Source of the DNA: Nitrospirota bacterium
Lineage (GTDB): Bacteria > Nitrospirota > Nitrospiria > Nitrospirales > Nitrospiraceae
Assembly: GCA_963703955.1 (NCBI GenBank)
Contig: CAVPGK010000012.1
Location: 128,001-192,000, forward strand
DNA: 64,000 nt
Direction of reading: 5' to 3'
Positions 43,757 through 49,284 of the stretch are shown piece after piece; position 1 is the stretch's first letter; every line of letters begins with the position of its first letter. The position numbers and the translations under genes were made by a program. The notes below the pieces were generated by a model. It saw only the letters and a program-made list of their open reading frames with translations, did no database searches and was not told the DNA's origin.

Positions 43757-43926
43757 GCGGCCGGTCCTGCTACTGAGTCTGCGTGCGGAGCGCGTATTCC
43801 AACCTCGCACGCAGACTCCTCTCTCCTGACATCCCTCTCCTCTCCGGCAGTTGCGCTCTCACCGAGGAAGATGATAAGACACCACAGGCTGCTGATTGCC
43901 CCCGAACTGTCAGCAAGAAGACGGCG

Positions 43927-45605
43927 ATGCACATCGATCCGAAGCACAAGAGTCATGACCTGACCGACGGCCCCGGCCGCGCGCCGGCCCGCGCCATGCT
44001 CAAAGCCGTGGGGTTCACCGATGACGATCTCGCGCGCCCGTTGGTCGGCGTGGCCAACACCTGGATCGAGGTCATGCCGTGCAACTATCACCTCCGCCGG
44101 CTTGCTGAGAAGGTGAAGGCCGGCATCCGCGCCGCCGGCGGCACGCCGATCGAGTACAACACCATCGCGGTGTCGGACGGCATCTCAATGGGCACGGAAG
44201 GAATGAAGGCCTCGCTCATCAGCCGTGAGGTGATCGCGGATTCGATTGAGTTGGTCGCGCGCGGACATTTGTTCGACGCGGTTGTAGCCTTGTCCGGCTG
44301 CGACAAGACGATCCCGGGCACCGTCATGGCGCTGGCACGCTTGAACGTCCCGTCCCTGATGCTGTACGGCGGCTCGATCATGCCGGGCCGGTTCCAAGGT
44401 CACGACGTCACGATCCAGGACGTATTCGAAGCGGTCGGCAAGCACGCCGCCGGCAAGATGAGCCGATTCGGAACTGCAAAGATCTGGAAGACCACGCCTG
44501 CCCGGGACCCGGGCGCCTGCGGCGGGCAGTTCACCGCCAACACGATGGCGATTGCATTCGAATTTCTGGGCATCTCGCCGATGGGGAGGAACGGCGTGCC
44601 GGCCATGGACAAGCATAAGGATGAGGTGGCGTTCCAATGCGGCCAGATGGTGATGGACCTGTTGAAGAAGGATCTTCGTCCGTCGCCAGATCATCACCCG
44701 GAAGTCGCTGGAGAACGCGATCGCCGCCGTGGCGACCACCGGCGGCTCGACGAATGCCGTGCTGCATTTGTTGGCCATCGCGCGGGAAGCCGGCATGAAG
44801 TTGACGCATCGACGACTTCGACAAGATCAATCGGAAAGTCCCGTTGCTCGCCGACCTCAAGCCCGGCGGGCGATTCATGGCCGCCGATCTCTTTACGGCC
44901 GGTGGCACGACGCTGGTTGCGAAACGACTATTGGATGCCGGAATCCTGCATCCCGGCCAGCCGACGGTTACCGGGCGGACGATTGGCGAAGAAGCGAAAC
45001 AGGCCATCGAGACGCCAGGACAACACGTGTTGCGGCCTCTTTCCAATCCCATCAAGACGACCGGCGGCCTGGTCATCCTCAAAGGCAACCTCTCGCCGGA
45101 AGGCTGCGTGGTAAAAGTGGCAGGTCATTCCATGATCACGTTCCGTGGTCCGGCCAAGGTCTATGACCGGGAGGAAGACGCGTTTGCCGCCGTCAAATCT
45201 GGACAGATCAAGGCCGGCGACGTCGTCGTGATTCGTTACGAGGGTCCCGCGGGTGGACCGGGCATGCGCGAGATGCTGGGGGTGACCGCCGCCATTGTCG
45301 GAGCAGGACTCGGAGACTCCGTCGCCCTGCTTACGGACGGCCGCTTCTCCGGCGCCACGCACGGATTGATGGCCGGCCACGTCGCGCCCGAAGCCGTGAA
45401 GGGTGGTCCCATCGCTGCGGTCAAAGACGGCGACATGATCTCATTCGACATCCCCGACCGTAAGCTGGACGTTGAATTGACCCAGAAGGAAATCAAGTCC
45501 CGACTCAAGAAGGTGAAACTGCCCGTTCCGCGCTACACTTCCGGCGTCATGGCGAAATACGCCCGCCACGTGTCGTCGGCGTCGGAAGGAGCTGTGACAA
45601 GCTAA
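43927..45605 (+). CDS. ilvD: Dihydroxy-acid dehydratase, interrupted by indels at ~44460-44820
   Basis: [59 protein letters not shown] and TDGRFSG across three frames. Confidence 0.95.
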
Positions 45606-45777: not shown

Positions 45778-45816
45778 AAAAAAGCGGGCGGCTTCTTCCG
45801 GAAGAAACCGCCCGCT
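45778..45816 (-). terminator. Rho-independent terminator (minus strand)
   Basis: Minus strand AGCGGGCGGTTTCTT-CCGG-AAGAAGCCGCCCGCT followed by TTTTT. Confidence 0.85.
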
Positions 45817-46210
45817 CTCGGCACTTGCGATGCCTGAAACCTTTACGCTCTTTTAAAAGACCCACCGTTCAGCGGAAGGTTAACCTCTGATCCTTTTCGG
45901 ACTGAGTGTCTCAAAGCCTCTTCAGGGTTCTCGTTATGTGAGGCTCCTGCCGCCTCATAAACCCTCATGAACCAGGTCTACATGTGACCGTTTGTGCCTA
46001 TCGGCACTCTGGAGGTTCTTGAGGCCAGCGCATTGACTCTGAACAAAGAGCCGAGTTGCAGACGAGAGGCTCCTCTACGCCGTCAGTGGGCCATGCAGGT
46101 CAGGTGGAGTCAGGTCTTCCATACAAGACCTCCTCTTGTTAAACCCCCGGGGCTTCCTGATGGGCGCGCTCCATCGATCTCCCCCTGCACCTCCTCCAAT
46201 TGATTCGGCG
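45778..46210 (-). ncRNA. Candidate ~430-nt structured non-coding RNA of unknown family
   Basis: Has its own promoter and terminator, no credible long ORF, and at least 8 nested helices including a GCAA tetraloop on this strand. Confidence 0.55.
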
Positions 46211-46217
46211 CAAACCC

Positions 46218-46247
46218 ATCCTAGTCTTCTCCGTTTGGATCTGTCAA
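46218..46247 (-). promoter_or_regulatory. Putative sigma70 promoter for the candidate ncRNA
   Basis: TTGACA (46247-46242), 18-nt spacer, TAGGAT (46223-46218). Confidence 0.6.
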
Positions 46248-46321: not shown

Positions 46322-46744
46322 TTACGAGGTGATGTATTTCTCCAGGTGCCCGATCAACTCTTCCTTCTCATCCAACATCAACGCAACCATGTCCCGCAGG
46401 GAGACGATTCCAAGGAACTCATCGCCGTTGAAGACCAACAGGTGTCGGCATCTGTGCTCCTTCATCAGATTGAGACAGTGACCGGCGGTATCCTTAGGAC
46501 CGACCGTTATCAAGTTTTCTGTCATCACGTCTTTGATCTTGACCTTTTCCGGATCTTTCCGCCTTCCGACGACTTTCATCATCAGATCCCGCTCCGTGAA
46601 AATCCCGATGATTTTGGAAGAGCGCGTGACTACCACCGATCCGATGAATTCCTCCGTCATCACCATCGCCGCCTCTATCGCCGATCTATTTTCGTCGATC
46701 GTTGCAACCTTCCGTATCACCTTTAGTGAAATGTCTCTGCTCAT
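46322..46744 (-). CDS. CBS domain pair protein
   Basis: IGSVVV, GIFTERD, IKDVMT, CRHL.V and GIVSLRD; SD GGAGGAGG precedes ATG 46744. Confidence 0.92.
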   Translation of the reverse strand: MSRDISLKVIRKVATIDENRSAIEAAMVMTEEFIGSVVVTRSSKIIGIFTERDLMMKVVGRRKDPEKVKIKDVMTENLITVGPKDTAGHCLNLMKEHRCRHLLVFNGDEFLGIVSLRDMVALMLDEKEELIGHLEKYITS

Positions 46745-46869
46745 GGCTTCCTCCTCCTTATGTGATCTAAAAATGAGTAAGGAGCCCCCCTGAACCAAAT
46801 ACTCAGAAAGAAACTGATACCTCGGACCGACATCCTATCCTACGCGGGTCGATGCGGGCATGGTTCGGG

Positions 46870-47730
46870 CTATGATGCGCTCAAGGCATGGATGTCGTTG
46901 ATCAGATCTTGCAACTTCGTCAGCGTACGAGCGCGCTGCTGTGGGGTCAGCATGTGATCGACGGCAATCACCATCTCTTTCACCGCGCTTCTCATGTCCT
47001 CCAAGGCGTGCTGGTATTGTGACGGATGACTCCTCTCGGGAAAGACCAGCCAATCTTGCAGCCGCTGCGAAACGATGTGAGGATCCCGAGTCGACCGGAG
47101 CAATTGCAAGATTTCCTGCTGTCGGAATTTCTGATAGTCCAGCCACGTCCTTTCGGTGTCGGGCAAGGCCCGGCTCAACTGTGTGATGCGCTGCTTCTGT
47201 TCCGCCGTCAGCGACCCGAACCAATCTTTGAGCCAATCTATCGTGGCTACCGCGCGCTTGGCCAACCGTTTCTGGGTCTCTTCCTTTGCGAGACGGTCTG
47301 CCTTTTCATTGTCGTCTCGAAACGCTTCTTCTAAATTCCGCACCTGCTGTTCATTCACCGAGGTTAAAAACACTGCAGAGTCACCTACGATTCGCTCAAA
47401 GAAATCCGCGCGCAACTGCTGATAGGTCTCGAAGATCCAGTCAACCTCGTCGCGATTCAAGCCGTCAGAACTCCTTGATTTAACTTCGTTCAAAAACCGT
47501 TCATAGACGGGAAGCGCCTCGAAGCGATGCCGAGCAAGGAGTCCTTTTAAGCGCCCGCGCAGAAAGGTTTTCTGATCCTTCGTCAGGTCAAAATAGTGGT
47601 CCGCCTTCCAGAGCACGAGCCAGTCCGCGTTTCGGTAGGCCAAGGTCGGCGTGCAGCTGATAAGCAGCCCTACCAGTAGCCATGCCAGCGTCAGCCGAGC
47701 TATTCTTGCGTCACGCCCCAATGGTTTCAT
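46870..47730 (-). CDS. Lipoprotein (DUF6279-like)
   Basis: Lipobox LISC, AYRNADW.V.W..D.YFDL...Q, W.G.LT.EQ and LTPQQR. Confidence 0.75.
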   Translation of the reverse strand: MKPLGRDARIARLTLAWLLVGLLISCTPTLAYRNADWLVLWKADHYFDLTKDQKTFLRGRLKGLLARHRFEALPVYERFLNEVKSRSSDGLNRDEVDWIFETYQQLRADFFERIVGDSAVFLTSVNEQQVRNLEEAFRDDNEKADRLAKEETQKRLAKRAVATIDWLKDWFGSLTAEQKQRITQLSRALPDTERTWLDYQKFRQQEILQLLRSTRDPHIVSQRLQDWLVFPERSHPSQYQHALEDMRSAVKEMVIAVDHMLTPQQRARTLTKLQDLINDIHALSAS

Positions 47731-48307
47731 GGGAATCACTCAGACGGCCCGGTGCCAGCAGGCTCATTGAACGCTCAAGGTCATCGGTGATGCATTGGGT
47801 TCCCACCTGACCATGATCAGTATGATGTCCCATAGCGTCTGGTTCCTTGCATGGAGTTGATCATCAGCATACCTCTTGAAGGAGCCGAAATAAAGTCATT
47901 AGGCGGCGATCGACCTGACAGGTTGGGGAAAAATACATCTCCAGGGTAATGGCCCTTGCTGTCGTCTTGGGTCTATAATTAACATTTTGCCGCCGGTATT
48001 CCGTGGGATTGATTCAGCAGACCGAATGGGATGTTCCGAGGAAATCGGAACGATTCCGCACCGGGAGATCAAATTAGTCAACAGGACCTCTGGTCACGCG
48101 ACTCATAGGTTCACACCTGAAACGGGGTGCGTTCGAGAACCACTTTGATCCTTCCACATTTACACTCAACGGACGGGGACTGGTTCTGTGTTCCTATTGA
48201 GCTGGATAGGATCGGCAAGTAGCAAGATTGATCACGGGTCGACCGGAAAACTTCGGAGTCTCACCGCTCAATGCTAAGACTAGGAGAAGCGGAGGGAGGT
48301 GATTCCA

Positions 48308-48472
48308 ATGCCCATGTATGAATACAAATGCTTGGATTGCGGCAAAGAATCTCTGCTGAGCCTGAGTCTCAAAGAGCATGAAACCGGAGCGCCGGTCTGC
48401 CCCTCCTGCAAGAGCAAGCGGATGGAGCAATTGCTCACAAGCGTGATGGCCAAGACGAGCCGCAAGAGCTGA
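48308..48472 (+). CDS. FmdB-family zinc-ribbon protein
   Basis: Below the ORF-track cut-off. SD GGAGG, then MPMYEYKCLDCGK...VCPSCKS...TSRKS*. Confidence 0.9.
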   Translation: MPMYEYKCLDCGKESLLSLSLKEHETGAPVCPSCKSKRMEQLLTSVMAKTSRKS

Positions 48473-48513
48473 TGTACTTGGTACTAACCTGGAGCGCGCC
48501 CCCAGGGGATCGG

Positions 48514-49284
48514 CTACACCACACCGGAATAATATCGCAAGACATTCGAAACGGAAAGGACGCCCACGATTGCCCCGTTCTCGGTAACCGCGAGATGACG
48601 GGTCGCTTTGTCCTTCATCAAGCGCACCGCTTCAATGATCGGCTGACTGCTTTCTATGGTAACCGGCGGTGTTCGCATGCAAGACTTGACGCGTGTGGTT
48701 GATGGGTCAAGCCCGCGCGCCACCACTTCTCTGGCGAGTTCGGTATCCGTGATGATTCCCACGTACTCATCACCGTCCGCAACCAACACCGACCCGATCT
48801 TCCACTCCTGCATCATACGACTGACCTGCTTCAGAGTTGCATCCGAAGGGACACTTCGAATTTCCGGCGACATGTGATCAGCGATCTGAGGACCGATCAC
48901 GAGACTCGGCCCCTTGTGTGGCTTCGTCGCAACTGACGCCCGGCGCGCTTCCAGTTCCGCGACACAGCTCTCCAGGACGCGTCTTCGGAGATGGAGACTC
49001 CCATGATTCATCTCCTGCGTCATTTCTTCCTGTGCTTCCTCCGGTAAGTTGATCAGGCTCGATGATTCTCCAAGCTCGGCATTTTGATAGGCATCCAGCA
49101 ATTCAGAGCTCTCGCCGAAGACCTCAGTGATCAGTCGTTCCGTCTCCAGGTCAAATGCTTCGAGTGCCAAAGCCATATCACCCTTCATGAGTAAGGGAGC
49201 CAAGCGTCCATGCTGCCGTCGCAGCCGGTCGATGTTCCGGTCCAGAGACCATCCACGCGTCCGTGGGGCTGTCGTCTCTTGCAT
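48514..49284 (-). CDS. CBS-pair protein with an N-terminal helical domain
   Basis: C-terminal IADHMS, IGSVLV, GIITDTE, TRHLAV and GVLSVSN; SD GGAGG. Confidence 0.88.
   Translation of the reverse strand: MQETTAPRTRGWSLDRNIDRLRRQHGRLAPLLMKGDMALALEAFDLETERLITEVFGESSELLDAYQNAELGESSSLINLPEEAQEEMTQEMNHGSLHLRRRVLESCVAELEARRASVATKPHKGPSLVIGPQIADHMSPEIRSVPSDATLKQVSRMMQEWKIGSVLVADGDEYVGIITDTELAREVVARGLDPSTTRVKSCMRTPPVTIESSQPIIEAVRLMKDKATRHLAVTENGAIVGVLSVSNVLRYYSGVV

Follow-up and report, generated by a model that had tools for sequence, protein, structure and literature searches.

The 64,000-nucleotide stretch of Nitrospirota DNA analysed here (the window) carries, on its minus strand and convergent with ilvD, a region with its own predicted promoter, terminator and folded structure. 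This locus raises the question of whether it is a gene for a free-standing RNA and, if so, what such an RNA could do. The original prediction called it an undescribed large non-coding RNA. We find that the first part of that description stands, since the locus is a stand-alone, conserved gene for a structured RNA of an undescribed class; the second part does not, as the RNA is not purely non-coding. Members of the Nitrospirales carry out nitrite oxidation and complete nitrification worldwide, and to our knowledge little is known about their RNA-level regulation.

Locus and family

The predicted parts of the gene are listed in the table. The promoter is present where it was predicted and taken alone is at chance level (1 found vs 0.8 expected); among 176 homologues, 162 are preceded by a lenient TTGAC…TAnnn pattern. 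The predicted terminator also holds up, although a simple terminator scan did not list it, and there is indeed no long ORF between the two. Four of the predicted hairpins, GAUGG/CCAUC, AGGUCUU/AAGACCU, GUGCC/GGCAC and GGUC/GACC, form in the predicted fold with pair probabilities of at least 0.94. The larger architecture of the original prediction fared differently. The UGCAGG/CCUGCA closure of its first domain has, in the register proposed, a pair probability of 0.01, the GCCUC/GAGGC closure of its second domain 0.05 and the AGGGUU/AACCCU arm 0.07. These closures and the suggested CCUCA/UGAGG switch differ from the architecture conserved in relatives, and the loop that had been read as GNRA aligns with the family loop YCCYAAG and is non-GNRA in relatives. 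The first domain corresponds to an optional leader of 18–100 nt across the family. When the window sequence is folded, the dominant closing helix is P1, GGCCCACUG/CGGUGGGUC (pair probability 0.99), and the AGGUCUU hairpin contains the Shine-Dalgarno sequence (SD) and AUG of a conserved 15-codon ORF that had been overlooked. The region is highly structured when the terminator is included (z −4.98) and in its core; without the terminator the signal is weaker (−2.17). Conservation and covariation in relatives, which the original prediction had named as checks, were both found.

Predicted features of the RNA gene and its neighbours, in window coordinates
Feature	Position	Strand	Remark
σ70-type promoter TTGACA-18-TAGGAT	46247–46218	minus	pattern scan; lenient pattern upstream of homologues
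Transcription start	near 46211	minus	inferred
Leader hairpin GAUGG/CCAUC, self-complementary GCGCGC loop	46159–46175	minus	pair probability 0.99; optional in family
Shine-Dalgarno AGGAGG	46129–46134	minus	in 5′ arm of AGGUCUU hairpin
Mini-ORF MEDLTPPDLHGPLTA, then stop	46075–46122	minus	15 codons; conserved core is codons 1–8
Pro-Pro codons of mini-ORF	46107–46102	minus	
P1 5′ strand	46084–46092	minus	begins at mini-ORF base 31
P1-closed branched domain, 234 nt	45859–46092	minus	z −3.81; family rod covaries
Apical twin hairpins GUGCC-GAUA-GGCAC and GGUC/GACC	45975–46007	minus	pair probability 0.99–1.0
P1 3′ strand	45859–45867	minus	compensatory A-U pair vs G-C in most members
3′ hairpin	45820–45834	minus	degenerate version of family GGCG-YCCYAAG-CGCC
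Intrinsic terminator with U tract	45778–45819	minus	hairpin pair probability 0.96
CBS-domain gene, upstream	46322–46798	minus	context; adjacency to RNA gene not conserved
ilvD, convergent, frameshifted in assembly	43783–45605	plus	

Because ilvD is convergent, a regulated gene on the same strand is excluded at the window, and in relatives too the adjacent genes are unconserved and often convergent. The ilvD reading is split over several frames, through assembly indels or because it is a pseudogene. Assembly errors of this kind could touch single bases of the RNA gene, and an amoC copy in another locus (L043) is frameshifted too. Upstream, at 46322–49284 (minus strand), lie two CBS-domain genes and a DUF6279 gene; the last also precedes the RNA in L003, L005 and L013.

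Judged from sequence comparison, the RNA gene is a member of a Nitrospirales-wide family without an Rfam match. The Rfam 15 covariance models gave no match at the gathering cut-off in the window or in 20 homologue loci, and the matches by E-value in the window were at chance level only, in agreement with the predicted absence of a known class. The family layout consists of a σ70 promoter, a variable leader, an SD with a mini-ORF, a branched domain of about 230 nt closed by P1, a C-rich hairpin and a terminator. By BLAST, 14 of 61 genomes have a match, among them the genome with the window locus (G000; assembly 82% complete), and an SD, an AUG and a short ORF are common to all 14. A pattern scan of GTDB gave at least 120 loci. 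Five pattern matches from outside the Nitrospirota (L047, L083, L084, L096 and L137), four of which are the starts of longer ORFs, were removed before all counts. The strict ORF pattern matched 107 of 245 Nitrospiraceae genomes and, in a scan of the phylum, 82 of 401 genomes, with none among the 255 outside the order. The 3′ hairpin alone occurs in 212 of 312 genomes of the order (194/218, 9/9, 8/82 and 0/2 by family), and a 60-nt profile of the 5′ part matched 63 of 66 Nitrospiraceae genomes and 75 of 91 genomes of the sister family, where the 3′ hairpin pattern had failed. Twenty additional matches to this profile were fetched, and the mini-ORF is present in 19. The single match outside the order (G558; 1 of 46 genomes) lacks a start codon and a promoter and is due to chance. 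Unpublished data enter these numbers in a limited way: G006, the origin of L003 (a window-type comparison and one P1 example), is an unpublished genome, and G006 and G075 are part of the genome tallies (BLAST, tmRNA, strict ORF and 3′ hairpin), with no conclusion resting on them alone.

Across the order there are one to three copies per genome, often paired and in some genera in tandem. The second paralogue in G000 (C16:54143 to 54408 or 54500, minus strand) begins MDDPSPPG…, has the canonical 3′ hairpin and is preceded by a σ54-like site with no TTGAC. It is convergent with a gene that by eye looks like rtcB. A GGCAY-N6-TGC site, either σ54-like or a palindromic operator, is found in 63 of 176 elements (0.8% in shuffles), in 59 of them 46–59 nt before TTGAC, and is absent from the window. 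The YCCYAAG hairpin is present in 134 of the 176 elements and ACCUCCYAC in the terminator in 67; many family terminators are missing a good U tract. Viral contigs gave no matches, nor did phage and plasmid collections queried with one homologue.

Presence in RNA data was looked at for one homologue, L021, rather than for the window. It was found in 22 runs, 17 of them recorded as RNA and coming from 8 studies, and contigs of four RNA runs cover the element (the longest at 1472–1767, 1510–1896 and 1509–1916). Two contigs run 60–80 nt beyond the predicted terminator near 1835. These contigs come without strand, ends, level or a DNA control and thus show no more than that the element is present in RNA libraries; flanking bins lacking such contigs were left out as evidence on level or ends. 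The portions of the literature on Nitrospira and comammox RNA regulation covered here contain no description of this RNA. The family is real, conserved and, as far as searched, undescribed; the motif could have been published outside Rfam.

The mini-ORF and the structured domain

From the alignments alone, the best-conserved part of the RNA is the SD, the AUG and a di-proline mini-ORF under peptide-level constraint, with the consensus M-[DEN]-[DE]-x-[ST]-P-P-[DG/K]. We chose 27 loci by the 3′ hairpin only (20 fetched regions and the C16 copy of G000) and took the best SD start regardless of prolines. P-P-[DG] falls at codons 6–8 in 26 of them and one codon later in the other; by comparison, 4 of all 4236 such starts in G000 have it there, two of them in genes of the RNA family itself. 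Codons 2–4 are variable, yet each of the 26 distinct loci has one or two acidic residues there. Residues were counted in 170 elements filtered on SD, AUG, Pro-Pro and P1 strand. Codon 5 is Ser or Thr in 165, with AGY, TCN and ACN codons all used, and residue 8 is D in 98, G in 60, K in 9, R in 2 and N in 1. The third positions of the proline codons vary, yet Pro6 is CCA in 142 of the 170. The distance from SD to AUG is variable and that from AUG to the prolines constant.

Downstream of codon 8 little is kept. The ORFs are 8–61 codons long and stop anywhere from codon 9 to codon 62. At least 10 copies of one genus have TAG or TAA straight after PPD, many sister-family copies have TAA at codon 10, and four members change frame after codon 8 or 9. 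Because the position of the stop varies, the finished peptide is not the conserved thing, and since tails and stops both vary, what is kept is the product of a ribosome's first seven or eight steps rather than a finished protein. ORF forms of 23–36 aa gave no family match or name. The SD can pair with codons 2–6, in a hairpin that is weak on average (mean z −0.79), and no consistent covariation links the 3′ loop to the SD of the same RNA.

The 5′ strand of P1 begins at ORF base 31 throughout the family (±1 in the four frame-shifting members), and its partner follows some 200–235 nt later. Of 50 distinct combinations of the two strands, 40–47 are paired at bases 31–36, and compensatory changes occur in the window (A-U), L005, L013, L054 and L172. 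In a 39-pair rod built from 47 sequences of the two main paralogues, 92.7% of cells are paired (39–46% in slid controls) and 19 of the 39 pairs have double changes, as high as in only 0–1 of 500 shuffles. This covariation overstates independence, because the structure was derived from the same sequences and many of the changes separate the two paralogues. It may thus reflect few events, and P1 itself is little varied. A local hairpin can compete for the P1 strand in 82 of 107 distinct cases, with both partners in 53. The long-range P1 state is favoured over this hairpin by a median of 8 kcal/mol, and the window has no competitor. The subfamily of the window (8 sequences) keeps P1 and the GUGC twin hairpins and has a degenerate or missing 3′ hairpin, with five of the eight lacking it. 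Among long-leader hairpins, 46 of 56 have a palindromic loop of at least 6 nt (12 in shuffles), or 17 of 27 when only distinct loops are counted (4.2 in shuffles); short-leader members have no such hairpin. The self-complementary leader loop resembles retroviral kissing loops, and a GCGC tetraloop fold is an alternative to it.

Protein genes within the RNA gene

The 5′ module leads into an AmoC gene in one comammox genus (g18). At L233 the order is leader, amoC, the exact family 3′ hairpin and terminator; at L027, L230, L232, L246, L252, L254, L256, L257 and L260, amoC is likewise followed by a similar 3′ module. Since amoC is flanked by both the 5′ and the 3′ modules, it lies inside the RNA gene in this genus. 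Among the 30 amoC loci listed, the leader is intact in 4 of the 14 from g18, and none of the 16 from another genus, g10, has the leader or the hairpin. The amoCAB leaders L244 and L253 look by eye like deleted remnants that kept the promoter, SD and AUG and lost the prolines and the domain. In a tree of 69 core sequences, nine amoC leaders and four stand-alone copies group within paralogue B as one supported clade. On this tree, whose bootstrap is rough, 2–3 changes account for the amoC label. No amoC match was found in the 82% complete G000 assembly. Folding with a modelled ribosome gave no consistent change at the amoC start or at the 3′ loop, and because of the former, what was captured could as easily have been a strong transcription unit as a switch. 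Other captures include clpX and small ORFs. AmoC is described as stabilising AMO under stress in the consulted part of PMC5960693.

Several further observations concern neighbouring genes. Truncated 5′ modules, which are further captures, are fused straight to other protein genes at L337 (G001:C1:45164), L338 and L242. The stand-alone amoC copies at L254, L265 and L266 are preceded by another conserved leader, which has a long GGCCCCUC…GAGGGGCC hairpin. Downstream of paralogue A at L181, L182, L185 and L191 are an unnamed protein, a pterin dehydratase and a TIGR03975 B12 radical SAM protein, and in several genomes tmRNA lies at a distance of 1–15 kb. In genus g10, a tiny hydrophobic ORF (MDT…) follows paralogue B at L021, L042, L074 and L193; at L042 and L074 it takes the place of the 3′ hairpin. 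We considered whether the mini-ORF encodes a RiPP precursor and rejected this, as the radical SAM gene is 1–2 kb from some copies rather than adjacent and is absent at the window, and the peptide length is too variable.

A possible ribosome pause, other readings and known systems

Sequence comparison shows that the gene has an independent promoter and terminator, a selected mini-ORF and a P1 that begins at base 31. We tentatively propose, with somewhat less than even confidence, that its product is a stand-alone, ribosome-loaded structured RNA in which a pause at Pro-Pro against P1 couples RNA stability or fold to translation status. A ribosome would initiate at the mini-ORF and pause at the di-proline with P1 at its mRNA entrance. 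Once Pro7 occupies the P site, ORF base 31 is at position +13, which we take to be about where mRNA enters the ribosome. The di-proline would be an EF-P-dependent, drop-off-prone motif like that of MgtL. While the ribosome dwells there, it could shield the 5′ end from RNase E/G, decide whether P1 forms, or both. If the pause governs RNA level or fold, then the RNA would report the state of elongation (EF-P, Pro-tRNA, Mg2+, energy), and it would act in trans, with the conserved C-rich 3′ loops or the branched domain as the most likely means. The repeated capture by protein genes, amoC in particular, would follow from the gene being a strong, protected transcription unit.

Published data bear on the pause in both directions. 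In the consulted part of PMC13602936, the EF-P pauses ranked strongest in E. coli include PPD and PPG, and in that of PMC11282234, early acidic and proline residues of MgtL destabilise the ribosome. Against the pause, only 2.8% of PPX motifs were paused in an E. coli Δefp strain, according to the consulted part of PMC4140641, and some members have K, N or R as residue 8. G000 encodes EF-P and RNase E/G, and its assembly (82% complete) yielded neither Hfq nor RNase J. A more far-reaching version, which we regard as possible but rather unlikely, is a free-standing transcript that exists to load a ribosome and keep it at a programmed Pro-Pro/helix site, as a cell-wide gauge or store of translation capacity in slow-growing nitrifiers, possibly dimerising through its palindromic loop, with one comammox lineage having built amoC and amoCAB units from the gene. 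If those units were so built, ammonia-oxidation expression in that lineage would descend from an RNA gene.

We weighed these proposals against several others. An abundant RNA might instead park ribosomes, storing 70S particles at Pro-Pro against P1 in slow-growing or starved nitrifiers, with the palindromic loop able to oligomerise the complexes. The register of ORF and P1 would be that of the proposed pause, and the order-wide occurrence in one to three copies, the palindromic leader loops and the presence of the RNA in metatranscriptomes are all consistent with storage. We nevertheless consider it unlikely: pausing at diprolines is usually brief in the presence of EF-P, which G000 encodes; many ORFs run on through P1 to codon 14–23; and the conserved 3′ hairpin would be left unexplained. 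Somewhat less probable again are two readings that we rate alike. The RNA could be an mRNA for a micro-peptide that signals or regulates through its first eight residues, the structure controlling only translation and stability. The clear coding signature, the genus in which eight codons are the whole ORF and the ability of codons 2–6 to pair with the SD all point this way, whereas the spread in length (8–61 aa), the unrelated tails and the frameshifts after codon 9, the nameless 23–36-aa forms and the weakness of the SD hairpin speak against it. The other is a cis-acting leader like mgtL, as an attenuator or strong promoter module for the following gene, with stand-alone copies read through weak terminators. 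In some genomes the module does run directly into amoC, clpX or small ORFs, many terminators lack a good U tract and most distinct cases have the local hairpin that competes with P1. However, downstream genes are unconserved, and convergent at the window and elsewhere, modelling showed no consistent switch at the amoC start, and the amoCAB leaders have deleted the prolines and the domain.

Two more readings fare worse. It is very unlikely that the RNA is purely non-coding and that the AUG and prolines are by-products of base pairing. The structure is strong and conserved and third positions are biased, as with Pro6, but the SD, AUG and prolines are in frame at 26 of 27 independently picked loci, Ser comes from two codon families, stops are synonymous, and spacing varies before the AUG and is fixed after it. 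There is hardly any chance that the RNA is the locked mRNA of a type I toxin-antitoxin system. Such mRNAs likewise have a short ORF, an occluded SD and long-range pairing; here the peptide is acidic rather than hydrophobic and can be 8 aa long, and antisense σ70-like promoters number only four among 176 elements and are scattered.

The family matters in two ways. It is a nearly core RNA gene found across the Nitrospirales, whose proposed sensing of ribosomes can be tested and which lacks the downstream gene that such leaders normally serve. The captures also indicate concretely where amoC copies in one comammox genus obtained their promoter, leader and terminator, and they make the control of amoC expression directly testable.

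Several known classes can be compared with this family. Like tmRNA, 6S RNA, SRP RNA and RNase P RNA, it is stand-alone, conserved, present in one to three copies and 350–430 nt long. It has no match to the tmRNA model (RF00023), and a true tmRNA lies elsewhere in 27 of 31 genomes, including the carriers G001, G003, G018, G038 and G047. An ARAGORN "tmRNA" in G000 reads as a tRNA; none was found in this genome, where it is probably missing from the 82% assembly. 6S RNA (RF00013) is a closed rod without an ORF, and G000 has a separate one at C10:153755; this copy (L146, C10:153720–153890) is just above the Rfam cut-off, with half of the model matched. G000 also has SRP RNA at a separate locus on C17 and an RNase P RNA motif on C20. 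For type I toxin mRNAs, we found neither a hydrophobic peptide nor an antisense antitoxin.

Other systems share parts of the design. The ermC leader stall and STAB-SD elements are ribosome-based 5′ stabilisers that act by blocking RNase J in Firmicutes. Protection by a ribosome that stays near the 5′ end is conceivable for the RNA of this family too, with the difference that G000 has RNase E/G and RNase J was not found in its assembly (82% complete). Staphylococcus RNAIII is a large structured RNA with a small ORF in its 5′ part, long-range pairing and C-rich 3′ loops. These features are shared, a small ORF within a larger structured RNA included. However, the RNAIII peptide is a fixed product, whereas only the first eight codons matter in this family, and pairing with target mRNAs is only putative in this family.

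The closest likeness is to the mgtL leader of mgtA, which has, in the consulted parts of PMC11282234 and PMC12856214, a short ORF with an SD and N-terminal acidic and proline residues, followed by alternative RNA structure. mgtL controls its downstream gene via Rho; this family has its own hairpin and terminator, a 230-nt branched domain and no conserved downstream gene, a same-strand gene being present only in the derived amoC/clpX fusions. A switch of terminator or start by ribosome position finds a competing local hairpin in many members and, on folding, no consistent output. Because there is no regulated downstream gene, the family does not belong to the mgtL class. By analogy, we suspect that the RNA most likely works like an mgtL-type ribosome sensor.
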